Under the pieces are notes generated by a model. It was not told the DNA's origin and made no database searches. It saw only the letters and a list, made by a program, of their open reading frames with translations. 64,000 bases of DNA from sequence record NC_054903.1; one strand, 5' to 3'. Source of the DNA: Enterobacteria phage GiZh. Below, in pieces: positions 2,630 through 25,815 of the stretch (position 1 is the first letter of the stretch; every line of letters begins with the position of its first letter). Both the position numbers and the translations under genes were made by a program.

Positions 2630-2658
2630 ATTATACCACATCCTTGTGGCAAAGTAAA
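2630..2658 (-). promoter_or_regulatory. early promoter with stem-loop (PeSL-type): -35 TTTACT, 17-bp spacer, -10 TATAAT
   Basis: Minus-strand sense GTTTACTttgccacaaggatgtggTATAAT; spacer holds inverted repeat CCACA/TGTGG; precedes the gene at 1600-2601. Confidence 0.6.
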
Positions 2659-3663
2659 CTAGTTCAGTGCATTTAGTGCATTGTTCAGTTTAGAACGTTG
2701 CTTCGTGAGATTTTTGACTTTTTCTTGTGCTTTTTCTAGCATCTTTTCAGCTTCTAACACTTCATTGGTCGCTTTAACGAGTTCATCATCTACTGCCTTG
2801 ATGGACTTCTCAATCGCATCCGCGTGCCATTTTTCAACAGGTTTAAGACTCGGATTTTCAACAGGAAGAAAATTCACTTTATTAAATTTCCATGCATCTT
2901 TATTACCTGAACTATACATCCAAAATTTAGGATCGTTTGATGAGTAATTAGTTTGGGGTTCAGGTTTTTTCTCTTGTGTAACTTCGTCCTTTCTCAAAAA
3001 ATCATATTTAAATGAAACGATCATATCAAGTTCATATGTTGTCGTATCTAATTTAAATCGTTCGAAATGCTGCGAAATCTTAGATTGAACAGCAGCAACA
3101 ACATCCATATACTTAAATGCTTCTGTCAGCTGTGATTTAAGACATTCACAAATTGAAAGAGAATTTTTTGTATTAGGTTTAAAGCTAATTCGTGCAGTTC
3201 TATTATTTTCTTTAGATGGTCTTACTTCCATTTGAAGAGTATAACCATCAAATTTCAGATTCTTTAAGTTAATATCAGAACCTTTTAATCGACTAGCAGT
3301 AGACAAAATTTGCTTTAATTGTTTACGGAATAGAGCAATAAATCTCCATTCAAGACGATAATGATTTGGATTGAAAAATCCAGATGATAAATCGACCTTA
3401 CTCTGACCGACGCCTTGAACAAATAGAGGATTTTTATAATCAATAGTTTTACAGAAATCGGTGAGCTGCTCACGAGCAGTCATTTGTGTAATATATCCCG
3501 CTTTACTAAAATGACGTAACCATTCACTGCTATTCATATATTTAAAGTGAATATCACGATTAACTTTATCAGGGTCTAAATTATTTTGGCACAAAAATGT
3601 CATAACATTACGGGTATAGCTGGCATTACGAACCATATCTTCAATTTGAGAACGAGTTTTCAT
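2659..3663 (-). CDS. hypothetical protein, 334 aa, C-terminal coiled coil (paralog set member 3)
   Basis: ORF track; ATG with AAGGA upstream; C-terminal coiled coil (AIEKSIKAVDDELVKATNEVLEAEKMLEKAQEKVKNLTKQRSKLNNALNALN). Confidence 0.75.
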   Translation of the reverse strand: MKTRSQIEDMVRNASYTRNVMTFLCQNNLDPDKVNRDIHFKYMNSSEWLRHFSKAGYITQMTAREQLTDFCKTIDYKNPLFVQGVGQSKVDLSSGFFNPNHYRLEWRFIALFRKQLKQILSTASRLKGSDINLKNLKFDGYTLQMEVRPSKENNRTARISFKPNTKNSLSICECLKSQLTEAFKYMDVVAAVQSKISQHFERFKLDTTTYELDMIVSFKYDFLRKDEVTQEKKPEPQTNYSSNDPKFWMYSSGNKDAWKFNKVNFLPVENPSLKPVEKWHADAIEKSIKAVDDELVKATNEVLEAEKMLEKAQEKVKNLTKQRSKLNNALNALN

Positions 3664-3671
3664 AGTGTTCC

Positions 3672-4559
3672 TTAAGATTTAAGTAAATCAACAATTTTAA
3701 TTAATTTTTCACGCTCAGATTTAGCTTTACTACTCAATCCAGATAGTCTGAAAATTTCATCGTCATACTGTTGAATAGAAATATTCAGCTCTTCAATTTG
3801 CTTATTAAAATAATCAATTTGTTCAGAATGTTTTTCGTTACTACGAACTGGTACAGGTTTTGTAGGCAATTTAGTTGAACTGGATTCATCCGGGCGATAA
3901 ATTAAAATACAACTTGAACCAATTGGACATTTTGCACCAGATGAATATTCTAACGTTCCAGCTTCTTTTAAAACTTCAAAAGCTAAACAGAGATGATGCC
4001 CCATATTAACATAATCTGTAGAGCGAGCTCTGACGTAATAATCATCGCCGCGAATACTAAATTTAAAGCATTTAAGGTCTTCTGTATTATTGGTCTTAAA
4101 AATCATTTGTTTATCTAGACCTTTAGCTAATCGAGCGCCTAATGCTAATAATCGTCGTTGATTTTCCCACAAATCTGCGATCATTTGGTCAAATGATAAT
4201 TTCGGCATTAGTCGACCATAAAGGTCATATCCTTTATTATAATTACGAAGAATTTCACTCGCGTTAATACGAGACAATGCTCCAATTTTATTAAGGGCTT
4301 TCATAATGCGATTAGATAAACCCATTCCAGACCCGTTTGTTCGCTGTAAATGTTTTTCTAATCCAAATCCAATATCAACTTTAAACTTATCTAAAATTTC
4401 TGCATGAACATCTCTGTCAATAACATTCAAATCCAAAGTTGGGTTAAATCTATGAAAAAATTTATCTGGCTCTCCACGACGAAGTATAGTCCATTCATTC
4501 AATTTTTTATTAACTAAAGATTTAATTACTGCATTGACATTATTAATTACTACTGACAT
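3672..4559 (-). CDS. hypothetical protein, 295 aa, C-terminal coiled coil (paralog set member 4)
   Basis: ORF track 3672..4580 trimmed to ATG at 4559 (MSVVINN) with GAGGA upstream; the table start is TTG. Confidence 0.72.
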   Translation of the reverse strand: MSVVINNVNAVIKSLVNKKLNEWTILRRGEPDKFFHRFNPTLDLNVIDRDVHAEILDKFKVDIGFGLEKHLQRTNGSGMGLSNRIMKALNKIGALSRINASEILRNYNKGYDLYGRLMPKLSFDQMIADLWENQRRLLALGARLAKGLDKQMIFKTNNTEDLKCFKFSIRGDDYYVRARSTDYVNMGHHLCLAFEVLKEAGTLEYSSGAKCPIGSSCILIYRPDESSSTKLPTKPVPVRSNEKHSEQIDYFNKQIEELNISIQQYDDEIFRLSGLSSKAKSEREKLIKIVDLLKS

Positions 4560-4566
4560 ATTTTCC

Positions 4567-4974
4567 TCACTCAATTTCAATTTTACTAAATATACAGAAT
4601 ATGATGGAAAAGACTATATAAGCACCACACACAGATTGAACTAATACCATTCCAAAGAACCAAACAATATTATCAAACAATGTCTGTTTTACGTCGAAAG
4701 GACGTAAACTTACAGTAATATTATCACCTTTTTCTATTGAAGAATACATCTCCGGTGAAATATATTCGCTAAATCTATAACCGTCTTTAAGTTCATATAC
4801 GGCAATAAACGATAAACTAGACCCCTTTCCTTGAGTTCCTGTAAGGGTATTAACTACAGTAACATCATAATCTTTATAATGCATATAATCATTAATAGCA
4901 TAATAACCATATGCAATTACTATACATAAACAACATATCAATAAATTCAATCTTTTAATTATCAACTGTTTCAT
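4567..4974 (-). CDS. small membrane protein, 135 aa
   Basis: Hydrophobic segments at N-terminus (LNLLICCLCIVIAYGYYAI) and C-terminus (IVWFFGMVLVQSVCGAYIVFSIIFCIF). Confidence 0.7.
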   Translation of the reverse strand: MKQLIIKRLNLLICCLCIVIAYGYYAINDYMHYKDYDVTVVNTLTGTQGKGSSLSFIAVYELKDGYRFSEYISPEMYSSIEKGDNITVSLRPFDVKQTLFDNIVWFFGMVLVQSVCGAYIVFSIIFCIFSKIEIE

Positions 4975-5029
4975 AATAATCTCAGTTAAAAGGGCTTAGA
5001 ACCATTATACCATCCTTGGTATAAAGCGG

Positions 5030-5557
5030 TTATGCGAGTACCGTCTTTAACCGTTCTTCAAACTTCCGAAGAGTATTCTGGCGTTCAGCTCTTTGCTTTT
5101 TGTAAGTTTCAATACGCTCTGAAATGAGAGTGTATCGTTCATTTACTGATTCTTTCATAAAATCAGGAATTTCACGAGAAGCTTTAATCTCGTCAAATTT
5201 ATCAATAACTGCTTGCTCTTCAGCAATTAAGTTATCATACATCAAAATATCTTTCTTGATGAACTCAATATCTTCTTGAGTTACACGAGATAATTTAGAT
5301 GCTTTATCCTTTTTGTACTGTTCGTTAGTATCACGAGACCAGTGTAATGTACGATTTTTATTCGTATTCTTGTAAATTTCTACAATACCAATCTCATCGA
5401 TAATAATGATCCAATTCCAACGGGATTTGTAAATTTGTCCTCCATCAACCGTGATTTCACCTCCAATTGAGATGTCATTAAAGAACTTGCTTTGTGCTTC
5501 AGATTTAAATTTACCATCGTTGTAATTTACCAAGTTAAAAATATCTTTAGCATTCAT
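5030..5557 (-). CDS. hypothetical protein, 175 aa, C-terminal coiled coil
   Basis: ORF track; ATG with GGAGG upstream; early promoter element at 5585-5613 immediately upstream. Confidence 0.7.
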   Translation of the reverse strand: MNAKDIFNLVNYNDGKFKSEAQSKFFNDISIGGEITVDGGQIYKSRWNWIIIIDEIGIVEIYKNTNKNRTLHWSRDTNEQYKKDKASKLSRVTQEDIEFIKKDILMYDNLIAEEQAVIDKFDEIKASREIPDFMKESVNERYTLISERIETYKKQRAERQNTLRKFEERLKTVLA

Positions 5558-5584
5558 TTTTGTTCCTCCGTAGTTGATAGTTGT

Positions 5585-5613
5585 ATAGTACCACAGAGGA
5601 ACGGTCTTGTAAA
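5585..5613 (-). promoter_or_regulatory. early promoter (PeSL-type): -35 TTTACA, 17 bp, -10 TACTAT
   Basis: Shares the 22-mer AGTTGATAGTTGTATAGTACCA (plus-strand reading) with the elements at 7024 and 22283; precedes the gene at 5030-5557. Confidence 0.55.
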
Positions 5614-6989: not shown

Positions 6990-7023
6990 TTTATTCTCCA
7001 AATCCGTATCAGTTGATAGTTGT

Positions 7024-7052
7024 ATAGTACCATAAAGCTTTATGCTTGTAAA
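7024..7052 (-). promoter_or_regulatory. early promoter (PeSL-type): -35 TTTACA, 17 bp, -10 TACTAT
   Basis: Spacer contains palindrome CATAAAGCTTTATG; upstream A/T-rich tract ttttgtgaaaaattttt; precedes the ATPase gene and follows the terminator at 7075-7104. Confidence 0.6.
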
Positions 7053-7074
7053 CCGTTTTGTGAAAAATTTTTGA

Positions 7075-7104
7075 AATAAAAAAAAAGGGAGCCCGAAGGC
7101 TCCC
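7075..7104 (-). terminator. rho-independent terminator after the nucleotidyltransferase-fold gene
   Basis: Stem GGGAGCC-(CGAA)-GGCTCCC followed on the minus strand by a 9-U run. Confidence 0.8.
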
Positions 7105-7106
7105 TA

Positions 7107-8120
7107 TCATTTATAATAACTTCGGTGGTTTTCAAGATAGACCTTCTCAAGGAAGTCATCCCAGAAACTCATGTCTACTGTTTTAGGCATACCGTTCTTA
7201 GAAGCTTCAGTAGATGCTGCTTCTACTTGATCGACCACATCTTCCAAAAACTCTTGAACTGTTTTAAATGGATGTTTACCCAACTTCACGTCGAGAATAA
7301 ATGGAGCATCTTGAAGTGGATAGACTAAGTCACCAGTTTTGTAAATTTCCAATAGTTGGAGTCCACCACGACAAGCATGACTCAAAGCTTTCCAGTCAAT
7401 ACCTTCATTGGCTTCGGCCTTACGAGCACGTTCACCATATTCAGCATCTAATTTGTTCAGTGACTGCTTAAGCTCAATAAGAGAAAGCGTTGTCTGATAT
7501 TTACGACCCAACACAGTGTAGAACGTTTGTGGGCCTGTTTTCTCATGATTATGGAACACCCATTCACAGAATTCGTTTTCTGGAAGACGATGCTTAATAT
7601 CTTCAACTTTAGTGCGACGCTGCTTAATAGAACCATCTTCTTGGTAATCAATCCACTGCTCAGGGATTTGATTAACTACTTTCAATACATCACGTAATGC
7701 AGCCAAACGAGAACCTTTGACACCGTATTTAGAAGCTTGCTTGCGGACATATCCTAAATATGATTTCATGTTAGTCGTATAAAAACGAGAACGGTTGTCT
7801 TGAATAAACTTCCACACATCAGGCAAATCAGATTTAACCACTAGTTCAGGTGGAGTGTGAAGCATATCTAATGCTACGGTTTCACCATCTGCTGCTAATT
7901 TAAAGAAATATTTAAGACTGTATAGTTCATGGTCAATATCATCTTTAGTGTTTTTAGATGATGTGTTGTTAGTGTTTTTACTCATATGCTCTTTAACATT
8001 TCCGATAAGAATATCGCGAGCAGGAGGAACAAAGATTTCTTTAAAATCTACATCAGATTCTGGAGTAGAAGTTCCATAAAGATGACTACCAAAATAGCTT
8101 TTCATTACTGTTTTCATCAT
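7107..8120 (-). CDS. nucleotidyltransferase-fold (Pol-beta-like) protein, 337 aa
   Basis: N-terminal GSHLYGTSTPESDVDF fits the G[SG]...D.D minimal nucleotidyltransferase signature; ATGA overlap with the upstream gene; strong terminator just downstream. Confidence 0.72.
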   Translation of the reverse strand: MMKTVMKSYFGSHLYGTSTPESDVDFKEIFVPPARDILIGNVKEHMSKNTNNTSSKNTKDDIDHELYSLKYFFKLAADGETVALDMLHTPPELVVKSDLPDVWKFIQDNRSRFYTTNMKSYLGYVRKQASKYGVKGSRLAALRDVLKVVNQIPEQWIDYQEDGSIKQRRTKVEDIKHRLPENEFCEWVFHNHEKTGPQTFYTVLGRKYQTTLSLIELKQSLNKLDAEYGERARKAEANEGIDWKALSHACRGGLQLLEIYKTGDLVYPLQDAPFILDVKLGKHPFKTVQEFLEDVVDQVEAASTEASKNGMPKTVDMSFWDDFLEKVYLENHRSYYK

Positions 8121-8578
8121 TCAGCCTTATATTCAATAACAGGACATACTTTAGCTTTACGCGCTTTTAAAAATTCGACGATAACCGATTTCTTGGGTTG
8201 AATAGGAGGTAAACCTTTATACGCCCTATCAATATTTTCTACGTGTAAAGCATAATCCTTTTTCCATTTATAATCTTTATATTTTTCACGCAAATGTGCA
8301 GGAATAACAAATGAACCGATAATAAGTAAAACAACCAAAAGCGCAAGTATAAATGCCGATGGAAGAAGAGTCCATAAACTACCGAAAATAAGCCAACGTT
8401 GTAGGCTTTCTGCACAAATAATTGTTAGCCCTACGAGTATAGCACATCCAAAAATAGAAACGAAAAATGTAGGAATGGCAATAGACCAAAAATATGCGCA
8501 TAGTGTCTTAGGTCGTTGCCATTCATCGTTAAACAATTTGAATAATTTATAATGCCAAGAGTTTTCATTAATAATCAT
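8117..8578 (-). CDS. membrane protein, 153 aa
   Basis: Three to four hydrophobic helices (e.g. IAIPTFFVSIFGCAILVGLTIICA; LALLVVLLIIGSFVIPA). Confidence 0.65.
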   Translation of the reverse strand: MIINENSWHYKLFKLFNDEWQRPKTLCAYFWSIAIPTFFVSIFGCAILVGLTIICAESLQRWLIFGSLWTLLPSAFILALLVVLLIIGSFVIPAHLREKYKDYKWKKDYALHVENIDRAYKGLPPIQPKKSVIVEFLKARKAKVCPVIEYKAE

Positions 8579-9653: not shown

Positions 9654-9839
9654 TTATTTACCAATTAAAGTTTCAATATAAGAATCAAGATTTACTTTAG
9701 CTTCTTCCATAAGAGTTTTGTATTTAATCTTGTTAGCATGTCCGGAGAAAGCTGATTCATCAATAATTGTTGATGTATGAACAGCTTTACTATACGTCTC
9801 AATTAATTCTCTTAATTTAAAAGCCTGCTCACTTGTCAT
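9654..9839 (-). CDS. small helical protein, 61 aa
   Basis: ATG with GAGGAG upstream; early promoter element at 9972-10000 upstream. Confidence 0.55.
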   Translation of the reverse strand: MTSEQAFKLRELIETYSKAVHTSTIIDESAFSGHANKIKYKTLMEEAKVNLDSYIETLIGK

Positions 9840-9971
9840 TACATACTCCTCTGAATCATATCAATAATGTTGTTTACCAAATTATAAGTAAACATTGGGT
9901 AATTATATTGAATCATCACATACACAACAAACAAAACTTTCATTCTCTTCTCCTTGGCAGTTGACAAGATT

Positions 9972-10000
9972 ACTATACCATAACCTTGCCAACTTGTAAA
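9972..10000 (-). promoter_or_regulatory. early promoter-like element: -35 TTTACA, 17 bp, -10 TATAGT
   Basis: Located in the 170-bp intergenic gap upstream of the gene at 9654-9839. Confidence 0.45.
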
Positions 10001-10006
10001 CCATTA

Positions 10007-10177
10007 AATGACGTTTTCAATAAAATTCTGAAGCTTTGTGTGAGCATCAACCATGATTTTCATTTCTTCTTTGGCGAAAGCTGTACCTCTTTCCCGAGCA
10101 GAATACTCATAGTCAGAAACTGCATTAGCATATTCTTCAATTAGCTTCATTAAAAACATCTGCTTTTCAGTTTTCAT
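10007..10177 (-). CDS. small helical protein, ~56 aa (below the ORF-track length cut-off)
   Basis: My own translation of the minus strand: MKTEKQMFLMKLIEEYANAVSDYEY...; resembles neighbouring small ORFs in composition. Coordinates approximate. Confidence 0.4.
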
Positions 10178-10361
10178 TATTCCACCTAATCATTTCAAGA
10201 TATTGAACTAATTTAGCTTTAGATTTGTCCAAATCCTTTTTAGCTGCTTCTATACCGTCGTATGAATATCCTTCACAATGCTCAACTGCTAATTGGTATG
10301 AATCTATTTCAATATCATGCGCTAATTTAATGATTTTTTCAAACTGTTCGCGTGTTAGCAT
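10167..10361 (-). CDS. small acidic helical protein, 64 aa
   Basis: ORF track; ATG start. Confidence 0.55.
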   Translation of the reverse strand: MLTREQFEKIIKLAHDIEIDSYQLAVEHCEGYSYDGIEAAKKDLDKSKAKLVQYLEMIRWNNEN

Positions 10362-10783: not shown

Positions 10784-10812
10784 ATAGTATCACAGCTCAA
10801 ACGGAAAGTAAA
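10784..10812 (-). promoter_or_regulatory. early promoter (PeSL-type): -35 TTTACT, 17 bp, -10 TACTAT
   Basis: Immediately downstream of the terminator at 10818-10845 and upstream of the gene at 10567-10755. Confidence 0.55.
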
Positions 10813-10817
10813 CCGGT

Positions 10818-10845
10818 AAAATGAAAAAAGTCTCCCGAAGGAGAC
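10818..10845 (-). terminator. rho-independent terminator after the gene at 10851-11237
   Basis: Stem GTCTCC-(CGAA)-GGAGAC followed on the minus strand by UUUUUUCAUUUU. Confidence 0.75.
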
Positions 10846-10850
10846 TAATG

Positions 10851-14952: not shown

Positions 14953-14979
14953 GTTATTCTCCTCTTAACTGATAGAAAA

Positions 14980-15008
14980 ATTATACCACAGTCAAGAGGA
15001 AAAGTAAA
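14980..15008 (-). promoter_or_regulatory. early promoter (PeSL-type) of regB: -35 TTTACT, 17 bp, -10 TATAAT
   Basis: Inverted repeat TCCTCTT / AAGAGGA (14960-14966, 14994-15000) brackets the -10; 21-nt leader to the regB ATG. Confidence 0.6.
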
Positions 15009-17145: not shown

Positions 17146-17619
17146 TTATTTGAACGATTTAACGTACTGAATAGAACCTTTACTATTCACAAAGGCAATT
17201 TTACCATTTTTATTATACATGGTAGCAGTACGTTGATAACCATAAGTTTGTTTACCAGATTGATAACCAACTAATGCGAAATTATCTTCGCCCATTTTAT
17301 TCTGTTTAGCGCGAATGCGTTCATGACCATGTGCCATAAGAACCTTAGCATCACCAGTTGCAATGGATCGACGAGTTTTTTCATCTTCAACTGTATTAAC
17401 AAAGTCGTCAAATGAATCAAATTTAGCATGAGATTTATTATACAATTTTCCATCTACTGCATAATTATATCCCTGTACATCCATCTCAACTTCTGTACCA
17501 TCATCCAATACAGCAGTGATTTTTTGACCTTTTTTAAATTTCAAAAGATCAGTAAAAGATTCAGCAATAATTTGAGAATTAATAGCTGCTTCAGTGATAA
17601 ATTCTTGATATGTTTTCAT
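17146..17619 (-). CDS. internal-protein-like capsid-targeted protein, 157 aa (ipII/ipIII position)
   Basis: N-terminus MKTYQEFITEAAINSQIIAE matches the T4 internal-protein capsid-targeting sequence (MKTYQEFIAE...) with Glu cleavage sites. Confidence 0.7.
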   Translation of the reverse strand: MKTYQEFITEAAINSQIIAESFTDLLKFKKGQKITAVLDDGTEVEMDVQGYNYAVDGKLYNKSHAKFDSFDDFVNTVEDEKTRRSIATGDAKVLMAHGHERIRAKQNKMGEDNFALVGYQSGKQTYGYQRTATMYNKNGKIAFVNSKGSIQYVKSFK

Positions 17620-17628
17620 ATGTTTCCT

Positions 17629-18045
17629 TTAAATGTAAATATTTTTACCGTAATACTTATACCAATGTGGTTTCATTAAAATTTTTTCATCAAGTCGTTG
17701 TTGACTCAATTTAATAGCTGATTTGCATGGATTATAATCATTTTTCCATTCTACTGGAATATCGCTGATGTCAGGAACTTCAGTATCTTTTATACTGAAC
17801 CCGCGTTTTAAGCATTCCGTTATAATGTCTAATTGACTCTTTCGCAAAAATTCTAACTTATCGTAAAAGAACGTAACATGACCAGAACCTAAAATAAACT
17901 CGGAAGATATTTTAAAATCTTTAACGCGCTTACCGTTTGCCACATGCTTACGAACTATACCAAAAACACGCGGCAATTCACGGTATTCTGCGATTAAATG
18001 TTGATCAGCAAGTTCAGATACTAAAGTCAAATTAATACGAGTCAT
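17629..18045 (-). CDS. denV: endonuclease V (pyrimidine-dimer DNA glycosylase)
   Basis: 138 aa, [29 protein letters not shown]...; I recognise this as T4 EndoV; GGAGGG upstream; early promoter at 18071-18099. Confidence 0.92.
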
Positions 18046-18070
18046 TTTATCCCTCCAATTAACTGTGAAT

Positions 18071-18099
18071 ATACTATCACAATTCTAGGAGAAAGTAAA
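18071..18099 (-). promoter_or_regulatory. early promoter (PeSL-type) of denV: -35 TTTACT, 17 bp, -10 TAGTAT
   Basis: Same -35/spacer/-10 architecture as the other elements. Confidence 0.55.
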
Positions 18100-18104
18100 C
18101 AACT

Positions 18105-18635
<531 letters not shown>

Positions 18636-20896: not shown

Positions 20897-20917
20897 TAAT
20901 AGGGGCCGAAGCCCCTT
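20897..20917 (-). terminator. hairpin, weak terminator or RNA-processing stem-loop
   Basis: Stem GGGGC-(CGAA)-GCCCC; minus-strand 3' flank only weakly U-rich; same 20-mer as at 60769-60788. Confidence 0.4.
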
Positions 20918-20921
20918 ATCA

Positions 20922-21515
20922 TTATTTCAGAGAATTAATGTATTCCTGAACATCGGCAGAGGTAGTTTCAACCCCAGAAATATTGCCATTAAAGGTTTCA
21001 ACTCGAGCAAGAGTATCTTCAATATCAACCTTAGTCAGTGCTGCAATTTCAACTACATCATCAGCAGTACTAATTCCGAGGGCATTCGCGGCGCGAGTTT
21101 CACGGATATATTCCAATTTAACTGCAAGTTCTTGGCGAGCATCATCTAACTCAACTACTTTCTTGGCAATTTCAATTCGCATTTCAGCATAACCATCAGC
21201 TTTAGTAGTCAACTGCTCAGCTGTTCGACGATATAGTAAACCGAGTTTAGCATGCATTGTTACATCTTGACCTTCAGAAAGAAGCTTGCGAATTTCACGC
21301 TCTTTTGATTCGGCCTGCTTATTCTTTTCGACAATAAGTTCACGAATACGCTTTTCTTCATTAATAGATTTAACAGAAGCAGTTTTTAGATCTTTAATCT
21401 TATCAAGTAGTTTTGCTGCCGCAGCAGTATACTGTTCTTCAACAGATAGATTTTTAGCCATAGCAGAACCAAGTTTAGTGCGAATAAACTCAACAATTTT
21501 CTTCAGCATGTTCAT
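20922..21515 (-). CDS. coiled-coil protein, 197 aa
   Basis: Largely helical/heptad sequence throughout; AAAGGAA upstream of ATG; own promoter at 21560-21588. Any PspA/Vipp1 relationship is speculative. Confidence 0.62.
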
Positions 21516-21559
21516 AGCATTTCCTTTAGTTAATTAAGGGTTTTATAATCCGTGGGAGT

Positions 21560-21588
21560 ATTATACTCTACTCCCAAGAGTTTGTAAA
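21560..21588 (-). promoter_or_regulatory. early promoter (PeSL-type): -35 TTTACA, 17 bp, -10 TATAAT
   Basis: Inverted repeat GGGAGTA / TACTCCC around the -10; precedes the gene at 20922-21515. Confidence 0.6.
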
Positions 21589-21589: not shown

Positions 21590-21919
21590 TTATTCTTCGT
21601 CCAATTCATCAATAAATTTATCGATACTACTATTAATAGACTCATCGATGATTAACAAAGCATCATCTATAATATTAATATTTTCTAAAGCATCAATATA
21701 AGCTTGATTGACTATAGACCATGCCCTTTGAAAATATGGGGCTTCATCATCAGGACTGAACCAACGTACACCTTCAAAGATACGTTTAGCATAATCCAAC
21801 ACCCATTGTACAGGCATGTTTTGAGAGCGTTCATTAAACTCTTCAAAGTCCTTAGATTCAAAAAGCTCTTCAGGATAATAATTTCTATTACAAAAAGCTT
21901 TACTAAAGTTACGTTTCAT
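21590..21919 (-). CDS. hypothetical acidic protein, 109 aa
   Basis: ORF track; ATG with GAGGAG upstream; own promoter at 21946-21974. Confidence 0.6.
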   Translation of the reverse strand: MKRNFSKAFCNRNYYPEELFESKDFEEFNERSQNMPVQWVLDYAKRIFEGVRWFSPDDEAPYFQRAWSIVNQAYIDALENINIIDDALLIIDESINSSIDKFIDELDEE

Positions 21920-21945
21920 AATGTTCTCCTCAAAGTTATAGGCTC

Positions 21946-21974
21946 ATAATATCTCAATCATGAGCCTGTGTAAA
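21946..21974 (-). promoter_or_regulatory. early promoter (PeSL-type): -35 TTTACA, 17 bp, -10 TATTAT
   Basis: Inverted repeat GGCTCAT / ATGAGCC; precedes the gene at 21590-21919. Confidence 0.55.
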
Positions 21975-21975: not shown

Positions 21976-22239
21976 TTATTTCATATTATTGAAATATTCT
22001 TCAGCAATTTCATCATTATCATGATAAACTTTAGAAGACAGTTTAACATAACTTTCAGCAGTGAACATGTTAATCACAACCTTTACAGTATACCACTGAC
22101 CATCTTCATTACCCATTACTGCGTAAGTTTCAAACAACGGATGATCAGGACCGATAACTTTAATATCATTCACTGTACGACCGAAATCTTCTGAAACACA
22201 TTTCATAAAGAAGTTGAACAGCTCACCGTAATTATCCAT
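21976..22239 (-). CDS. hypothetical protein, ~87 aa
   Basis: ORF track 21976..22302 (TTG start lying inside the promoter at 22283-22311) trimmed to ATG at 22239 (MDNYGELF) with GGAGA upstream. Confidence 0.55.
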   Translation of the reverse strand: MDNYGELFNFFMKCVSEDFGRTVNDIKVIGPDHPLFETYAVMGNEDGQWYTVKVVINMFTAESYVKLSSKVYHDNDEIAEEYFNNMK

Positions 22240-22282
22240 TTCATTCTCCAAGTTATTTTCTGTATCAGTAGTTGATAGTTGT

Positions 22283-22311
22283 ATAGTACCATGGAAGGAC
22301 AAGGATGTAAA
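22283..22311 (-). promoter_or_regulatory. early promoter (PeSL-type): -35 TTTACA, 17 bp, -10 TACTAT
   Basis: Same 22-mer and upstream A/T tract (ccgttttgtgaaaaaattttt) as the element at 7024; precedes the gene at 21976-22239. Confidence 0.6.
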
Positions 22312-22440
22312 CCGTTTTGTGAAAAAATTTTTAAAAAGTTTTGGGGAATTCTAGGGCAGGGAGGGGAAATCAAAGGATAGGATAATATATTATAAAGGGT
22401 AGAAACTAAATGATGTCTAGAGAGGCCTGGAAAGGCCTAG

Positions 22441-22473
22441 ATACCAAAAAGCCCCAACCTTTCGGCTAGGGCT
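22441..22473 (-). terminator. rho-independent terminator after the IP-like gene at 22481-22954
   Basis: Bipartite stem AGCCC...GGGCT with inner CC-UUUC-GG, followed on the minus strand by UUUUU; near-duplicate of the element at 22996-23028. Confidence 0.65.
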
Positions 22474-22480
22474 AAGAATG

Positions 22481-22954
22481 TTATTTGATTTGTTTAGCAG
22501 ACCAAATGCGGTCTTTAATAATTTTTTGGATGTCTTCAACATATTCAAGAGAGTGAACATGTGGGTTATCTTTGAAACTATAAGCACGAGCTAGCTTTTG
22601 GCCTTCAGTTTTAATTACTAAAAGCTCTTTAAGGATAGCTTCATATTTGGAGATAATTCCTTTAACAATATTTTTCTCTTGTGCGACTTTAGGATCTGCT
22701 TTAGGAGCAGGTTTACCTGAAGCCTTTGCAAAAGCAGCTCCAGTAGCAACTAAACTTTTCCAGGCCATACTAACTGCATTTCCCGTAAATCCTTCCGCTT
22801 TCATATCGCGAGCAAATTGGAATCGTGACTCATCGGAAGCATCTTTATAGGAATATTTACCCGCGGCAATGGCAGCTTTTGCAACAGCTTGAATTTCAGT
22901 GCTAGATGCTTCATTTAACACCGCTTCATTTAAAAATTGAGCATATGATTTCAT
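22481..22954 (-). CDS. internal-protein-like capsid-targeted protein, 157 aa
   Basis: N-terminus MKSYAQFLNEAVLNEAS resembles the internal-protein capsid-targeting sequence; TATAAATA late promoter at 22991-22998 upstream and hairpin terminators on both sides. Confidence 0.65.
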   Translation of the reverse strand: MKSYAQFLNEAVLNEASSTEIQAVAKAAIAAGKYSYKDASDESRFQFARDMKAEGFTGNAVSMAWKSLVATGAAFAKASGKPAPKADPKVAQEKNIVKGIISKYEAILKELLVIKTEGQKLARAYSFKDNPHVHSLEYVEDIQKIIKDRIWSAKQIK

Positions 22955-22990: not shown

Positions 22991-22998
22991 TATTTATA
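22991..22998 (-). promoter_or_regulatory. late promoter TATAAATA (minus strand) upstream of the IP-like gene at 22481-22954
   Basis: Plus strand reads TATTTATA, ~37 nt upstream of the ATG. Confidence 0.55.
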
Positions 22999-23028
22999 CT
23001 AAAAAGCCCCAACCTTTCGGTCGGGGCT
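22996..23028 (-). terminator. rho-independent terminator at the downstream end of the tRNA / stable-RNA cluster
   Basis: Stem AGCCCC...GGGGCT with inner hairpin, followed on the minus strand by UUUUU. Confidence 0.65.
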
Positions 23029-23077
23029 AAGCCTTGCGGCAACCTTGTCGGGGTTCCACCTGCTAAGGCAAGTGTTT

Positions 23078-23340: not shown

Positions 23341-23344
23341 TGTT

Positions 23345-23420
23345 TGGTCGAGGCAGTAGGGATCGAACCTACGACCTAGGACTTAGAAGGTCCTTGCTCT
23401 TCCTTCTGAGCTATGCCTCG
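23345..23420 (-). tRNA. tRNA-Arg (anticodon UCU)
   Basis: Acceptor CGAGGCA/TGCCTCG, anticodon stem-loop AGGAC-CTTCTAA-GTCCT, T-arm GTAGG-TTCGATC-CCTAC, CCA encoded. Confidence 0.82.
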
Positions 23421-23424
23421 GATT

Positions 23425-23499
23425 TGGCGGACGTGATAGGATTCGAACCTATAACCAATCGCTTAACAGGCGATCGCTCTGCCATTGAGCTACACATCC
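23425..23499 (-). tRNA. tRNA-Asn (anticodon GUU)
   Basis: Sequence GGATGTGTAGCTCAATGGCAGAGCGATCGCCTGTTAAGCGATTGGTTATAGGTTCGAATCCTATCACGTCCGCCA. Confidence 0.82.
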
Positions 23500-23503
23500 A
23501 AAT

Positions 23504-23590
23504 TGGTGGGGAGTGATGGAGTCGAACCACCCGAGTCGCAATGACAATGGATTTACAGTCCACACCGCTACCTCTACGGGATAACTCCCC
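23504..23590 (-). tRNA. tRNA-Tyr (anticodon GUA), class II
   Basis: Acceptor GGGGAGT/ACTCCCC, anticodon stem-loop GTGGA-CTGTAAA-TCCAT, variable arm TGTCATTGCGACTCG resembling bacterial tRNA-Tyr, T-loop TTCGACT, CCA encoded. Confidence 0.75.
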
Positions 23591-23602
23591 TAATTCATAA
23601 TT

Positions 23603-23677
23603 TGGTGGCCCTGGGTGGAATTGAACCACCATCTGGCGATTATGAGTCGCTTGCTTGAACCTTCCAGCTACAGGGCC
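23603..23677 (-). tRNA. tRNA with anticodon CAU (Ile with modified C34, or Met)
   Basis: Acceptor GGCCCTG/CAGGGCC, anticodon loop CTCATAA, T-arm GGTGG-TTCAATT-CCACC, CCA encoded; starts 1 nt after tRNA-Thr. T4 has an Ile tRNA at this position (memory). Confidence 0.75.
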
Positions 23678-23678
23678 T

Positions 23679-23754
23679 TGGTGCTGATTGACGGAATCGA
23701 ACCGCCGACCTTCTCATTACAAGTGAGTTGCTCTACCTACTGAGCTAAATCAGC
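23679..23754 (-). tRNA. tRNA-Thr (anticodon UGU)
   Basis: Acceptor GCTGATT/AATCAGC, D-arm GCTC-AGTAGGTA-GAGC, anticodon loop CTTGTAA, T-loop TTCGATT, CCA encoded. Confidence 0.85.
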
Positions 23755-23759
23755 AAAAC

Positions 23760-23849
23760 TGGCGGAGGCGATAGGATTTGAACCTATGAGTCGCCGGAGC
23801 GACTGCCGGTTTTCAAGACCGGTGCATTAAACCACTCTGCCACGCCTCC
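23760..23849 (-). tRNA. tRNA-Ser (anticodon UGA), class II
   Basis: Acceptor GGAGGCG/CGCCTCC, anticodon loop CTTGAAA, long variable arm, CCA encoded; starts 2 nt after tRNA-Pro. Confidence 0.85.
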
Positions 23850-23851
23850 AG

Positions 23852-23925
23852 TCTCCATACAAGGATTTGAACCTTGGACCTCCTGATCCCAAATCAGGCG
23901 CTCTACCAAACTGAGCTACACGGAG
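23852..23925 (-). tRNA. tRNA-Pro (anticodon UGG)
   Basis: Sequence CTCCGTGTAGCTCAGTTTGGTAGAGCGCCTGATTTGGGATCAGGAGGTCCAAGGTTCAAATCCTTGTATGGAG; CCA not encoded. Confidence 0.88.
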
Positions 23926-23935
23926 TAAATTAAAT

Positions 23936-24009
<74 letters not shown>

Positions 24010-24014
24010 AAATT

Positions 24015-24101
24015 TGGTGCGAGAAGTGGGACTCGAACCCACAAGGAAATCATTCCGCAGCATTTTAAGTGCTGTACCTTTACCAATTTGACCATTCTCG
24101 C
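24015..24101 (-). tRNA. tRNA-Leu (anticodon UAA), class II long variable arm
   Basis: Acceptor GCGAGAA/TTCTCGC, T-loop TTCGAGT, anticodon loop CTTAAAA, CCA encoded; starts 1-2 nt after tRNA-Gln (dimeric precursor arrangement). Confidence 0.85.
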
Positions 24102-24102
24102 G

Positions 24103-24175
24103 CTGGGAATAAAGGACTCGAACCTTTGCATCCTGGAATCAAAATCCAGTGCCTTACCAACTTGGCTAATTCCCA
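24103..24175 (-). tRNA. tRNA-Gln (anticodon UUG)
   Basis: Hand-folded cloverleaf: acceptor TGGGAAT/ATTCCCA, T-arm AAAGG-TTCGAGT-CCTTT, anticodon loop TTTTGAT; CCA not encoded. Ends +/-2 nt. Confidence 0.85.
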
Positions 24176-24272
24176 ATTATTAACAAAGGCTCTTAAGCAA
24201 GAACCCTTGATGATAGAGGGTATTAATCAGTGCGATATGAGTTAATAATAACAAATAATTCTTAAAGCATAT

Positions 24273-24560
24273 TTACCATTTATGATAATACATATTTACG
24301 ATGCATTCAAGACCCAAAGGATTCTTGAAAATATCATATTCAAGAGGACCTTTTTCTGTTTCAATAAAGAAATCAAAATTTACTGTATTAAATTTACGGT
24401 CTTCCTTTACTAATTTAACTTGTGAAGATGAACGGTCAATGTAAACCTTTTCAACTTCAAAATATGTTAAAATGCCATAATCATCAATCAAGGCTTTAGC
24501 CGCGTCTTGATCATATTTATATCCATTTTCAATGGACGATACTTTCGCATAAAGAATCAT
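24273..24560 (-). CDS. hypothetical protein, ~95 aa
   Basis: ORF track 24273..24566 (TTG) trimmed to ATG at 24560 with GAAGGT upstream. Confidence 0.55.
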   Translation of the reverse strand: MILYAKVSSIENGYKYDQDAAKALIDDYGILTYFEVEKVYIDRSSSQVKLVKEDRKFNTVNFDFFIETEKGPLEYDIFKNPLGLECIVNMYYHKW

Positions 24561-24943: not shown

Positions 24944-24944
24944 T

Positions 24945-25130: not shown

Positions 25131-25158
25131 TTTATTCTCCTCGGTAGTTGATAGGGTA

Positions 25159-25187
25159 ATAGTATCACTACCCTATCTAAAAGTAAA
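25159..25187 (-). promoter_or_regulatory. early promoter (PeSL-type): -35 TTTACT, 17 bp, -10 TACTAT
   Basis: Inverted repeat GATAGGG / CCCTATC; precedes the small membrane-protein gene at 24945-25130. Confidence 0.6.
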
Positions 25188-25188
25188 C

Positions 25189-25422
25189 TTATTTTTTACG
25201 AAAAATTGATTTATTTTCTGCTGCCCATTTTTCAATAACTGCAGCAGGACCAGTAACAACAATTTTATCACCGTAATCTTCTGCGGCGAGTTGACCGAAA
25301 TTATCTAATGCATCACGAAGAACTCCATGAGGCATTTCACCCATTTTATCTTTCTTGCCGGTGTAAATAAACTCAACTTTTACATCAGAAGATTCAGCGA
25401 TAAACTCTTTGAAAGTTTTCAT
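25189..25422 (-). CDS. internal-protein-like capsid-targeted protein, ~77 aa (ipI locus)
   Basis: ORF track 25189..25488 trimmed to ATG at 25422 giving MKTFKEFIAESS..., a capsid-targeting-type N-terminus; the table start lies upstream of the promoter at 25457-25485. Confidence 0.6.
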   Translation of the reverse strand: MKTFKEFIAESSDVKVEFIYTGKKDKMGEMPHGVLRDALDNFGQLAAEDYGDKIVVTGPAAVIEKWAAENKSIFRKK

Positions 25423-25456
25423 TTTGATTTCCATTTGGTTTTGTTTTGATAGAGTA

Positions 25457-25485
25457 ATAGTATCACTACTAAAACCCTGTGTAAA
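25457..25485 (-). promoter_or_regulatory. early promoter (PeSL-type): -35 TTTACA, 17 bp, -10 TACTAT
   Basis: Near-identical copy of the element at 25787-25815, including the upstream tract caactttgtgaaattattttaaatc; precedes the IP-like gene at 25189-25422. Confidence 0.6.
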
Positions 25486-25498
25486 CAACTTTGTGAAA

Positions 25499-25756
25499 TT
25501 ATTTTAAATCTTCTAATCGTTTCTTCATCTTAGAACCATTTTTAGCAATTTCTCCTGCATCTGAGCATAATGCTAAAAGCGCTTTAACTTTAGTTTGGTC
25601 TCCTTTAAAAGATGAAGGATCGACTGCAGCAGCAAGTTCTTTAATACGAGAGAAAAGACGCTCAGCTTCAGCTAAAGCCATTCCAAGCTTTACTTCCATA
25701 CCGTGGGAAGATTCGGTGATAGTAGTTTTTGTAGCAAACTCTTTGAAAGTTTTCAT
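25499..25756 (-). CDS. internal-protein-like capsid-targeted protein, 85 aa (ipI locus)
   Basis: N-terminus MKTFKEFATKTTITESS; flanked by near-identical promoter cassettes at 25457-25485 and 25787-25815. Confidence 0.65.
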   Translation of the reverse strand: MKTFKEFATKTTITESSHGMEVKLGMALAEAERLFSRIKELAAAVDPSSFKGDQTKVKALLALCSDAGEIAKNGSKMKKRLEDLK

Positions 25757-25786
25757 TTTATTTTCCTAATTAATTTTGATGAGATA

Positions 25787-25815
25787 ATAGTATCACTACC
25801 TCATCAACGTGTAAA
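25787..25815 (-). promoter_or_regulatory. early promoter (PeSL-type): -35 TTTACA, 17 bp, -10 TACTAT
   Basis: Inverted repeat GATGAG / CTCATC; precedes the IP-like gene at 25499-25756. Confidence 0.6.

Follow-up and report, generated by a model that had tools for sequence, protein, structure and literature searches.

Early-promoter cassettes of a Tequatrovirus: predicted read-through RNA hairpins and partial support for a role in module shuffling

What are the near-identical sequences that recur between the small genes of this stretch, and do they do more than start transcription? The window (the whole 64-kb stretch analysed) is from a Tequatrovirus and includes the nrdC–tk–regB–denV–e–tRNA–ipI region. 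Between its genes, all on the minus strand, lie exactly 13 elements that follow the pattern GTTTAC(A/T)–17 bp–(TG)n–TAnnnT. The initial annotation, which had counted thirteen minus-strand copies with an exact 17-bp spacer, was right on both points (13/13 for the spacer). The strict pattern TTTAC-N18-TAYWAT gives 11 matches (0.59 expected), all on the minus strand and inside 2630-25815. The -10 hexamer proposed earlier, TA(T/C)(A/T)AT, describes these 11 and fails at 9972 (TATAGT) and 18071 (TAGTAT), the two sites gained when the -10 is loosened to TANNNT. Every site is followed, 25-44 nt later, by a Shine-Dalgarno sequence (SD) and an ATG. In a matrix search of the kind suggested by the annotation, built from these 13 sites, members score 32-58 bits (9.4-47.7 in leave-one-out) and the top non-member position on both strands (128 kb) scores 4.7 bits; coding sequence, the plus strand and the window's late-gene half yielded no element in the scan. 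Taken jointly, the evidence is best explained, with a probability of about 0.8, by early promoters, nine of the 13 with a stem formed in sense RNA, whose cassettes are one of several recombination substrates. The elements are listed below; promoters are named by the first coordinate of the core.

2630-2658, minus strand: nrdC.4-homologue early promoter (TTTACT-17-TATAAT, TG at -15/-14; 39.5 bits)
5562-5613, minus strand: nrdC.8-homologue early promoter with hairpin (core 5585-5613, hairpin 5562-5602)
7024-7105, minus strand: nrdC.10-homologue early promoter with terminator (core 7024-7052)
9955-10003, minus strand: mobD.2-region-homologue early promoter (core 9972-10000, -10 TATAGT), upstream of a small ORF at 9839-9967
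10784-10846, minus strand: mobD.5-homologue early promoter with terminator (core 10784-10812)
14957-15008, minus strand: regB early promoter with hairpin (core 14980-15008)
18050-18099, minus strand: denV early promoter with two-part hairpin (core 18071-18099, -10 TAGTAT)
21549-21588, minus strand: e.6-homologue early promoter with hairpin (core 21560-21588, no TG)
21940-21974, minus strand: e.7-homologue early promoter with hairpin (core 21946-21974, no TG)
22283-22311, minus strand: e.8-homologue early promoter (repeat families D1 and D4)
25150-25187, minus strand: trna.4-homologue early promoter with hairpin (core 25159-25187)
25441-25488, minus strand: internal-protein gene early promoter (core 25457-25485) with imperfect hairpin (z -2.6)
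25776-25815, minus strand: second internal-protein gene early promoter with hairpin (core 25787-25815)

By their sequence and their identity to characterised T4 promoters, the 13 elements are sigma-70-dependent immediate-early promoters of a T4-type phage. They have a common layout: an A/T-rich upstream region (74% A+T vs 64% background), a GTTTAC(A/T) -35, the 17-bp spacer and a TAnnnT -10, usually extended by TG (11/13). The motif ATCA[AG] occurs exactly 7 nt past the -10 in seven of them (p=1e-7), often at the start site. Orthologous T4 regions are identical or near-identical to the window's promoters: P14980 is the exact T4 regB promoter, with the T4 sequence continuing from the -35 hexamer to the start codon, and for each of the remaining 12 a T4 counterpart can be recognised. 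Experiments have identified the regB promoter of T4 as an early one (PMC3014915). In T4, early promoters are built from UP, -35, TGn and -10 elements, are very strong and are active immediately after infection (Hinton 2010, PMC2988021); the window's elements have the same parts, a UP-like A/T tract included, and do not differ from them as promoters. Each cassette occupies the gap, ~55-120 bp long (~240 bp at P22283), that separates the stop codon of one small early gene from the next SD, so that every gene or short group of genes is served by a promoter of its own. Early promoters of T4 were reportedly also the subject of work by Liebig and Ruger in 1989 and by Wilkens and Ruger in 1996, cited in PMC9391042 and PMC2988021.

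Nine of the 13 cassettes carry a statistically supported hairpin across the -10 (stems of 8-18 bp, RNAfold z -2.4 to -5.2). The annotation had described 5-7 bp inverted repeats at the -10, and a stem-loop, in most cassettes; each of its examples can be found, though the stems exceed the stated length and four cassettes have no spanning stem. In the nine, the complementary segments are the spacer and the discriminator or early leader, positions that sigma-70 leaves free. At regB, the SD itself, CAGUUAAGAGGAGAA, pairs with the spacer segment UUUUCCUCUUGACUG in an 18-bp hairpin (14957-15003; z -5.2). At nrdC.8, the spacer supplies the 5' arm, GUUCCUCUGUGGU, and the SD is covered by the 3' arm, ACUACGGAGGAAC (own leader ranked 1/13; z -3.6). 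The denV hairpin (18050-18094; z -4.6) consists of AAUUGUGA/UCACAGUU plus CUCC/GGAG over the SD. P9972 has a 15-bp hairpin over the -10 (main stem 9959-9994; own leader again rank 1; z -5.2). The remaining stems are those of e.6, UGGGAGUA/UACUCCCA across the -10 (21549-21579; z -2.4); e.7, 11 bp, AGGCUCAUGAU/AUUAUGAGCCU (21940-21967; z -4.4); trna.4, 12 bp, GAUAGGGUAGUG/UAUUACCCUAUC (25150-25177; z -3.0); P25787, 14 bp, UGAUGAGGUAGUGA/UAUUAUCUCAUCA (25776-25807; z -4.0); and the imperfect one of P25457. Two of the four cassettes lacking a -10-spanning stem follow canonical terminators: P7024 (cassette fold z +0.6) is preceded by one with a stem at 7086-7105 and a U-run (z -2.8), and by an A/T-rich UP region, and P10784 (z +0.2) comes immediately after one with a stem at 10829-10846 and a U-run. 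P2630 has just a small intra-spacer hairpin, CCACA/UGUGG (2634-2651; z -1.9), and no spacer-leader complementarity in our test; P22283 has no hairpin (z +1.0).

The annotation had assigned the cassettes to the promoter-early stem-loop (PeSL) type. Sequence comparison bears this out: the T4/PST PeSL consensus, TTTACW...N17...TAYWAT (Comeau, Arbiol & Krisch 2014, PMC4122927), is identical, and the class is therefore already known; the finding is correct, not new. As in T4/PST, the order is A/T-rich upstream region, promoter, stem-loop, SD and start codon, and the elements are intergenic in hyperplastic regions and indel-associated; the 'half' PeSLs described there (PMC4122927) resemble the one that our comparison finds in U12/U14. 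According to a figure legend in that paper, T-even stems directly precede the promoter and are regarded as terminators, whereas nine of the window's 13 stems span the -10, have no U-run and in three cases cover the SD. In stem position the window resembles the PeSLs of RB49/phi1, whose stems lie between -35 and -10 or over the -10 and in which G-T pairs were noted (Arbiol et al. 2010, PMC2839356). There too, cassettes flank small ORFs, which inter-cassette recombination excises or inserts. Unlike those of the window, RB49 promoters are near-perfect TTGACA/TATAAT and their stems G/C-rich. Arbiol et al. termed the T-even elements analogues, not homologues, attributed the description of such elements at T-even IP loci to Repoila 1994, and tested mini-circles and terminator activity in RB49/phi1 only (PMC2839356). 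The new detail here is the predicted formation of hairpins in sense read-through RNA, with the 3' arm over the SD at regB, denV and nrdC.8.

Do the arms pair as RNA or as DNA? Among all 13 leaders, the best pairing partner of a spacer is its own leader in 8/13 cases, and the observed mean spacer-leader energy was reached in 0/20,000 permutations. Of 75 variants from eight genomes, 36% fall within the best 5% of partners. At the orthologous denV, regB, e.6, mobD.2-region and nrdC.8 promoters, arm pairs differ yet stay complementary. The mobD.2-region stem is perfectly Watson-Crick in T4, has two G.U pairs in the window and is TTGGTAGGA/TCCTACCAA in SF; the e.6 stem is compensated in SF (UGAGAGCA/UGCUCUCA) and reads AUUAGA/UCUAAU in T4. 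Variants of the trna.4 stem in JoYop and T2 have G.U pairs, and RB51 and T4 have a C in the P25787 stem where the window has a U (G-C vs G.U). With a mismatch-neutral score, internal stem mismatches are G.T/T.G in 13 cases vs C.A in one, a count that collapses to ~10 vs 1 independent positions. The sense fold beats the antisense fold in 8/9 stems (mean 5.7 kcal/mol, p=0.01) and in 38/48 variants. The compensatory changes, the bias for G.U over A.C and the stability of the sense strand show that the stems are selected as sense-strand RNA structures. That the inverted repeats act as DNA, either as a cruciform or hairpin cut or bound by recombination proteins (e.g. endonuclease VII) or as the operator of a dimeric protein, and so set off recombination directly or control the promoter, is very improbable. 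Operators are typically inverted repeats centred on the promoter, some crossover points do lie within stems, and Arbiol 2010 left a site-specific recombination mechanism open. However, each promoter has arm sequences of its own, which co-vary with one another, so that the promoters share no recognition sequence, and neither the asymmetric mismatches (G.T 13, A.C 1) nor the 5.7 kcal/mol sense advantage would be expected of a cruciform or duplex operator, both being symmetric. The strand-asymmetry test may be compatible with a hairpin in single-stranded non-template DNA.

RNA started locally lacks the 5' arm, which lies upstream of +1, and cannot fold into the hairpin; only transcripts reading through from upstream would do so. 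At three of the 13 sites, regB, denV and nrdC.8, the 3' arm covers the SD. Opening the ribosome-binding site (RBS) is calculated to cost 19-19.5 kcal/mol in read-through vs 2.3 in local RNA at regB, 14.6 vs 0.8 at nrdC.8 (z 9.3) and 10-13.0 vs 6.2 at denV. The regB occlusion recurs in five lineages (SF, VR7, a Jiaodavirus and two further ones) with different stems and registers (8.5-20.5 vs 0.8-3.9 kcal/mol, z 3.5-9.8), and the denV occlusion with three different Tequatrovirus stems and in Mosigvirus. Since the 3' arm is the SD, read-through RNA is predicted to be translationally silent for these three genes; expression of each would be tied to its own promoter, which would itself be shut off within minutes. 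The T4 genes e, soc, 49 and I-TevI have RBS-sequestering hairpins of the same arrangement, with the promoter within or at the 5' arm and the SD/AUG in the 3' arm; their long transcripts are untranslatable and just the locally initiated one is translated (Uzan & Miller 2010, PMC3014915). In those genes the internal promoter is late (or middle) and expression is delayed, whereas the window's are early, which predicts confinement of regB, denV and nrdC.8 expression to the first minutes. None of the three is on the published list of T4 RBS-sequestered genes (PMC3014915), and spacer-leader complementarity is not discussed in the reviews of T4 early promoters consulted (e.g. PMC2988021). It is from the sequence and from T4 that we infer this function of the hairpins.

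At five -10-proximal stems the RBS stays open (z -0.3 to -2.0) and a U-tract is absent. The stems other than those of regB, denV and nrdC.8 lie just before +1 and probably mark where transcripts are bounded, by attenuation, pausing or protection of the 3' end. Could all of the stems, as proposed for PeSLs, simply be terminators or attenuators of upstream units, with the RBS pairing incidental? We regard this as rather unlikely. The stems do lie where the transcript of the upstream gene has its 3' end, an RB49 PeSL stem-loop cut downstream lacZ about as strongly as the rrnB T1 terminator (PMC2839356), and two stemless cassettes have canonical terminators in the equivalent place, which suggests that the position needs a boundary function. 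Yet a U-run follows 0/9 spanning stems, a terminator scan detected 0/9, and the stem tested in RB49 is G/C-rich, whereas those of the T-even phages are rich in A/U. T4 delayed-early expression, moreover, relies on read-through (PMC2988021), and an occlusion of regB kept in five lineages by different sequences and registers is hardly incidental.

The annotation had further held that the cassettes mark the variable modules. Comparison of the window with 14 relatives gave 67 unique breakpoints, 12 of them inside cassettes (18% vs 4% expected, p=1e-5); the other 55 (82%) lie at homing-endonuclease insertions, terminator repeats and gene-start homologies. A breakpoint is present at 9/13 cassettes vs 22/45 other gene junctions (p=0.16; 19/45 and p=0.08 in a second count), and the number per junction is 1.15 vs 0.60 (p=0.018), a ~2-fold excess that is modest beside the T4/PST picture (PMC4122927). 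The claim is thus only partly supported: it is borne out against chance and by the in-register junctions, is weak against the junction null (p=0.16), and does not hold for regB, which all the relatives examined conserve. The conserved cassette flanks (UP/-35 and TG/-10/+1), with 16-32 nt of identity between non-allelic copies, are the top repeat families of the region and its longest dispersed direct repeats. One 22-mer occurs three times, at 5572-5593, 7011-7032 and 22270-22291 (0 expected); the annotation had reported it at the promoter cores, 13 nt away. P22283 and P7024 have in common this 22-mer (-10 to ~+9) and a 21-nt UP/-35 block. The block noted at 25441-25510 and 25771-25840 is real and comprises 32 + 16 identical nt around a ~14-nt variable segment.

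Junctions between two cassettes are in register at 21590/21976, 21536/21923 and 25171/25446; RB51 lacks segment 25171-25446, with a junction overlap of 24 bp. The e.6 cassette has breakpoints at 21590 and 21536, and the e.7 module between the e.6 and e.7 cassettes is swapped or deleted in Kha5h, T2, JoYop, RB51, U12 and U14, with ends at 21976/21590 or 21923/21536; U12 and U14 retain an orphan half-cassette. Six relatives have breakpoints at 25168-25188 in the trna.4 cassette, and in T2 and Manna an inserted ORF lies between duplicated 69-bp pieces of the P7024 cassette. Chimeric promoters occur in T2 (L004:25997) and at denV, where an ipIII-type promoter of T4 extends to ~+12 and is followed by the denV leader, RB51 being arranged alike; ipIII and ipII are absent here. 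P25457 is probably a third, since its hairpin arms appear to derive from two different cassettes. The flanks would thus be one of several substrates of ectopic recombination by which genes between cassettes are deleted, inserted or swapped. This role is partly supported: the topology of the exchanges is observed directly, their rate we infer, and the excess over the gene-junction null is weak. It is possible, though we doubt it, that the elements are plain early promoters without any special part in shuffling, alike by promoter constraint, at which breakpoints coincide since viable indels fall between genes. The weak junction-level enrichment (9/13 vs 19-22/45) and the 55 breakpoints outside cassettes fit such an account, and laboratory T4 deletes the same kinds of genes via 6-10 bp microhomologies (PMC9391042), so cassettes are not required for such deletions. 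It accounts poorly for the doubled number of distinct breakpoints per cassette junction, the paired junctions in the same register of two cassettes, the chimeric promoters with mismatched arms and the orphan half-cassette; 22-32 nt of non-allelic identity far exceeds what a promoter consensus needs, and mini-circles were shown experimentally for RB49/phi1 PeSLs (PMC2839356).

The segment 25130-25830, with breakpoints at cassette +16 to +39 and at +92/+93 in the coding start, behaves like the polymorphic IP loci of T-even phages. There, as Repoila et al. reportedly found in 1994 (EMBO J 13:4181, cited in PMC2839356 and PMC4122927), shuffling of IP genes takes place between two conserved parts, the early-promoter/stem sequences and the N-terminal capsid-targeting sequence. 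That work is said to cover IP loci only, whereas the window's cassette type is spread over 23 kb.

The pattern TTTAC-N18-TAYWAT occurs 11 times in the window, always on the minus strand and always within 2630–25815, against 0.59 occurrences expected. Relaxing the −10 hexamer to TAnnnT adds two sites, at 9972 (TATAGT) and 18071 (TAGTAT), which gives 13 promoter-like sites. All 13 carry the core of a T4-type early promoter on the coding strand (a GTTTAC(A/T) −35 element, a 17-bp spacer and a TAnnnT −10 element) and are followed by a Shine-Dalgarno (SD) sequence and an ATG located 25–44 nt past the −10. A weight matrix built from these sites (span −30 to +12) and scanned over both strands of the 64 kb scores them at 32–58 bits (9.4–47.7 in leave-one-out), and the best site elsewhere reaches 4.7 bits. 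Pattern and matrix scan thus confirm the 13 sites of the initial annotation, whose −10 formula, TAYWAT, describes 11 of them but not TATAGT and TAGTAT. It had named a similar density inside coding sequence as the observation that would count against these sites; the motif does not occur there, and the sites stand. All 13 cassettes (promoter with or without stem-loop) lie in the nrdC-to-ipI early region, and none is found in the late-gene part at 27.5–64 kb.

Cassettes of the window, named P plus the lower coordinate of the promoter core (coordinate, strand, description, z-score of the 66-nt cassette folded as RNA)
2630, minus, promoter with a small hairpin inside the spacer only, z −1.9
5585, minus, promoter with a stem spanning the −10, ATCA(A/G) after the −10, z −3.6
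7024, minus, promoter with a canonical terminator directly upstream, ATCA(A/G) after the −10, z +0.6
9972, minus, promoter with a stem spanning the −10, z −5.2
10784, minus, promoter with a canonical terminator directly upstream, z +0.2
14980, minus, promoter with a stem spanning the −10, ATCA(A/G) after the −10, z −5.2
18071, minus, promoter with a stem spanning the −10, z −4.6
21560, minus, promoter with a stem spanning the −10, z −2.4
21946, minus, promoter with a stem spanning the −10, z −4.4
22283, minus, promoter without a stem, ATCA(A/G) after the −10, z +1.0
25159, minus, promoter with a stem spanning the −10, ATCA(A/G) after the −10, z −3.0
25457, minus, promoter with a stem spanning the −10, ATCA(A/G) after the −10, z −2.6
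25787, minus, promoter with a stem spanning the −10, ATCA(A/G) after the −10, z −4.0

The window belongs to a T4-type phage (Tequatrovirus). Its first 27.5 kb, one of the "hyperplastic" early regions of T-even phages, is collinear with T4 and has all its genes on the minus strand, in the order nrdC.2 to nrdC.11, mobD region, rI, tk, vs, regB, denV, e, nudE and e.2–e.8, followed, again as in T4, by a tRNA cluster, the ipI region and 57B/57A. About 400 phage records align to positions 2000–26500 across 80% or more of that length, with best identities of 96–97%. In the window, denV directly follows e (17629–18599); it lacks ipIII and ipII, which lie between the two in T4, and has an ipIV-like gene (17146–17619) downstream of denV. 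RB51 is arranged alike. Loss of ipIII has also occurred repeatedly in laboratory evolution of T4 (PMC9391042).

The promoters resemble those of T4 beyond their core. TG is present at −15/−14 (a TGn extended −10) in 11 of 13, and the 25 nt upstream of the −35 contain 74% A+T compared to a background of 64%; T4 early promoters have been described as a combination of UP, −35, TGn and −10 elements (PMC2988021). In seven promoters, the distance from the −10 to ATCA(A/G) is exactly 7 nt (p = 1e-7), and this motif is probably a conserved start site with its initial transcribed sequence; similar ATCAAC motifs follow early promoters of Mosigvirus SF, Gaprivervirus VR7 and a Jiaodavirus. The cassettes match their intergenic counterparts in T4 exactly or almost exactly, and P14980 is the exact T4 regB promoter sequence from the −35 hexamer through the start codon. 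[quoted passage not shown] Solely by orthology, initiation right after infection by the unmodified host RNA polymerase is predicted; the copies of the T4 GenBank/RefSeq record carry no annotated promoters, and a literature search for T4 transcription-start-site datasets found none that was usable. Three of the promoters share a 22-mer, which begins one base ahead of the −10 hexamer and extends to about +9, as had been noticed initially, but its copies are at 5572, 7011 and 22270, 13 nt away from where they had been placed. The block said to be common to both internal-protein promoters is present as 32 + 16 identical nt around a variable segment. T4's own denV promoter (T4 record L002, ~21385–21415) reads TTTACA-16-TACTAT and is missed by a fixed 17-bp pattern because its spacer is 16 bp long; such scans will return too few early promoters when applied to relatives.

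A stem spanning the −10 is present in nine of the 13 cassettes (z ≤ −2.4). The −35/−10 spacer supplies its 5′ arm, the discriminator together with the early leader supplies its 3′ arm, and the loop consists of the −10. P7024 and P10784 have a terminator in place of the spanning stem, and P2630 and P22283 lack a convincing one. The inverted repeats of the initial annotation are real but longer than the 5–7 bp it gave. Spacer–leader pairing was compared with permutations that preserve both composition and the SD motif. At eight sites, the best partner of the spacer among the 13 leaders is the leader of its own cassette, and the mean spacer–leader pairing energy (−13.1 vs −8.1 kcal/mol) is matched by none of 20,000 permutations. 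Across eight genomes with 75 distinct variants of the promoters, 36% of the variants rank in the best 5% of partners.

Stem-loops before ipIII, ipII, denV and orf61.9 were reportedly noted by Valerie et al. in 1986. The consensus TTTACW...N17...TAYWAT has been published for promoter-early stem-loop (PeSL) elements of the T4/PST pair (Comeau et al. 2014, PMC4122927), PeSL stems have been located between the −35 and −10 or overlapping the −10 (Arbiol et al. 2010, PMC2839356), and Repoila et al. (1994), as cited in PMC2839356, described such elements at T-even IP loci. The class of cassettes is therefore already known. With the same consensus in print and with stems, SD and start codon, and intergenic location all present, the proposed PeSL identity is right, and the finding amounts to a rediscovery of T4 early promoters and T-even PeSLs, its main value being the correct annotation of the early transcription units of this phage. 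From computation we infer, beyond the cited papers, stems that form only in read-through RNA, occlusion of the ribosome-binding site at regB, denV and nrdC.8 that compensatory changes have preserved, and a modest excess of breakpoints.

Because the start site is located ~7 nt past the −10, RNA initiated at the cassette's own promoter (local RNA) lacks the 5′ arm, and the hairpin therefore forms only in read-through RNA, which arrives from upstream. Orthologues retain complementarity with different arm sequences.

Stem arms in orthologous cassettes (5′ arm / 3′ arm)
denV, window: CTCC..AATTGTGA / TCACAGTTAATTGGAG
denV, Kha5h, JoYop and SF: TCCTCCAAG / CTTGGAGGA
denV, T4: TCTCCTGTAG / CTACAGGAGA
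denV, VR7: TCTCC / GGAGA plus GATAGGGT / ACCCTATC
e.6, window: TGGGAGTA / TACTCCCA
e.6, SF: TGAGAGCA / TGCTCTCA
mobD.2 region, T4: AGTTGACAAGATTA / TAATCTTGTCAACT
mobD.2 region, SF: TTGGTAGGA / TCCTACCAA

Since stems change register between genera, orthologues do not align in columns, and the place of column-wise covariation counts was taken by tests based on permutation, opening energy and mismatch type. Under a mismatch-neutral score, the internal mismatches of 29 unique stems comprise 13 G·T/T·G, one C·A and four others, with about 10 independent positions for G·T/T·G versus one for C·A. The sense fold is more stable than its reverse complement in eight of nine stems (by 5.7 kcal/mol on average, p = 0.01) and in 38 of 48 variants. 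Mismatch asymmetry and sense-strand stability therefore point to a structure selected on the sense strand, that of the read-through RNA; single-stranded non-template DNA is less likely. A symmetric DNA cruciform or a protein operator is disfavoured by the strand-asymmetric mismatches and fold energies, and by arms that have no sequence in common. Nor are the spanning stems canonical intrinsic terminators, a role rejected on sequence: no U-run follows any of the nine, a terminator scan called none of them, and a G+C-rich hairpin with an immediate U-run is found only in the separate hairpins at 7086–7105 and 10829–10846.

The energy needed to open the ribosome-binding site (RBS, −14 to +4 around the AUG) was compared between read-through and local RNA. 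At three of the 13 sites, the SD/AUG is predicted to pair with the 5′ arm upstream of the local start: regB (19.5 kcal/mol in read-through vs 2.3 in local RNA; z 4.8 against shuffled spacers), denV (10.3 vs 5.7; z 3.3) and nrdC.8 (14.6 vs 0.8; z 9.3). The opening-energy test gave no RBS occlusion at the other 10, and SD sequestration was rejected as the general function of the stems. The predicted regB occlusion is conserved in five lineages, with different stems and registers (read-through/local, kcal/mol): Mosigvirus SF (17.3/2.8), two RB69-like contigs (19.4–20.5/2.6–2.9), Gaprivervirus VR7 (15.3/2.8), a Jiaodavirus (9.5/2.0) and three Moonvirus-like contigs (8.5–14.2/0.8–3.9). Occlusion of denV is predicted for three different Tequatrovirus stems and for Mosigvirus, and is weaker in VR7. 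At five −10-proximal stems (9972, 21560, 21946, 25159 and 25787), the RBS is as open as, or more open than, in shuffled controls (z −0.3 to −2.0). These stems are not canonical terminators because they have no U-run; candidate roles are attenuation, pausing, protection of the local promoter, and protection of 3′ ends after RegB or RNase E cleavage.

In T4 e, soc, 49 and I-TevI, a late promoter lies within the 5′ arm of an RBS hairpin (PMC3014915). The regB, denV and nrdC.8 cassettes have the same design, but with an early promoter embedded, so that expression would be limited to the first minutes; such a limit agrees with the tight control that RegB is said to need (PMC3014915). That promoter-embedded 5′ arms are a systematic insulation device of T-even phages has, in our estimate, about an even chance of being correct (probability roughly 0.5). 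The parts of the spacer and discriminator that sigma-70 leaves unconstrained would then encode anti-leader or anti-SD sequence. The three genes would be translatable only from their own immediate-early transcripts, and their expression would end with early-promoter shut-off although read-through RNA continues, a temporal mirror image of the late-promoter hairpins. The regB arrangement would have been kept by compensatory evolution in at least five genus-level lineages, and the hairpin may also shield GGAG in read-through RNA from RegB cleavage. Hairpins acting only on read-through RNA would offer a way to stop a dense run of promoters from summing its output and, if so, would explain how RegB, a potentially harmful nuclease, is confined to the first minutes.

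Breakpoints were mapped by comparing window positions 1–27500 with seven and then 14 relatives, chaining blastn alignments and clustering the endpoints of indels and replacements; the cassette zone was taken as −25 to +59. There are 61 unique breakpoints with seven relatives and 67 with 14, of which 12 fall in cassettes, compared to 4% expected (p = 4e-6 and 1e-5, respectively). The other 82% comprise seg/mob homing-endonuclease insertions, a terminator-flanked module and gene-start homologies. Because viable indels must fall between genes, cassettes were also compared with other gene junctions. A breakpoint is present at nine of 13 cassette junctions versus 19 of 45 others with seven relatives (p = 0.08), or 22 of 45 with 14 (p = 0.16), and distinct breakpoints per junction number 1.15 versus 0.60 (p = 0.018). 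Cassettes are therefore about 2-fold richer in breakpoints than other junctions, and the strong coincidence obtained against uniform positions (p = 1e-5) is weakened with gene junctions as the null. The initial annotation was right about what the elements are but only partly about their evolutionary role: that cassettes mark variable modules agrees with 12 of 67 breakpoints and with in-register junctions, but the excess over other junctions is only ~2-fold, which tempers the published view of PeSLs driving T-even genome plasticity. Among the dispersed direct repeats of the region, the cassettes make up the top families, and they mark sites of gain and loss of genes with accessory and anti-defence functions (internal proteins, the nrdC.x ORFs and the e.x ORFs).

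Individual junctions are in register with the promoters. The e.7 module is swapped in Kha5h, T2 and JoYop, where each end lies 2 bp upstream of a −35 (21590/21976), and in RB51, where each end lies ~23 nt after a −10 (21536/21923). RB51 also lacks 25171–25446; the junction overlap of 24 bp is the conserved TG/−10 block of two cassettes. In U12 and U14, e.7 is missing, and what remains is one complete promoter and, behind it, the orphan −10 half of the following promoter, which corresponds to the "half PeSL" of Comeau et al. 2014 (PMC4122927). The topologies of the RB51 deletion and the U12/U14 e.7 loss match those that recombination between neighbouring cassettes would leave on excising mini-circles. 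The denV promoter that the window shares with RB51 is the T4 ipIII promoter to about +12 joined to the denV leader. A T2 promoter combines a trna.4-type 5′ arm with an ipI-type 3′ arm and has lost pairing; P25457 looks like a chimera of the same kind. Laboratory T4 readily deletes segments containing ipIII and nrdC.5 via 6–10 bp microhomologies (PMC9391042), so the region is plastic and cassettes are not required.

Several rearrangements involve other elements. A 36-nt direct repeat (89% identical; 22441–22476 and 22996–23031, minus strand), each copy of which is a strong terminator hairpin with a U-run (z −3.6 and −3.8), flanks a 520-bp module with an ORF at 22481–22954. T4, T2 and Manna lack this module, with a 35-bp junction overlap, and a different insertion, 667 bp long, is present at this hairpin in U12 and U14. 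Terminator hairpins are therefore also swap points, independent of promoters. A 2.0-kb deletion in U11 (8107–8130 / 10168–10191) and a 1.9-kb deletion in Manna (1852 / 3753) have 22–23 bp overlaps that are not promoters. The U11 overlap is at gene-start sequences (repeat family D5); that of Manna is within the nrdC.4/nrdC.5 coding regions, where a homologous stretch would explain it. Between nrdC.11 and nrdC.10 (window 7024–7105), T2 (L004 7335–8331) and Manna (L008 7354–8974) have an extra ORF, annotated in T2 as RNA polymerase ADP-ribosylase and flanked there by a duplicated 69-bp piece of P7024 (terminator tail, UP region and −35). In the tRNA cluster (23341–24290, with 10 tRNAs at 23345–24175), relatives carry insertions of 156–1154 bp between tRNA genes at 23341, 23420–23667, 23850–23931, 24104–24167 and 24281, several of which bear a SegB-like or HNH homing-endonuclease annotation; breakpoints of this kind have no relation to cassettes. 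An Rfam search of the window returned ten tRNAs and nothing else.

Two further intergenic features are of note. A G+C-rich palindromic hairpin, AGGGGCCGAAGCCCCT (20899–20919), with no adjoining promoter, lies in the 41 nt that separate the e.6 homologue from that of e.5. Upstream of P22283, ~110 nt of non-coding, C-rich and G-poor sequence (22312–22420, minus strand) is unusually unstructured (MFE −0.45 kcal/mol, z +2.5; 200 of 200 shuffles fold better), and its composition is reminiscent of a Rho-utilisation site.
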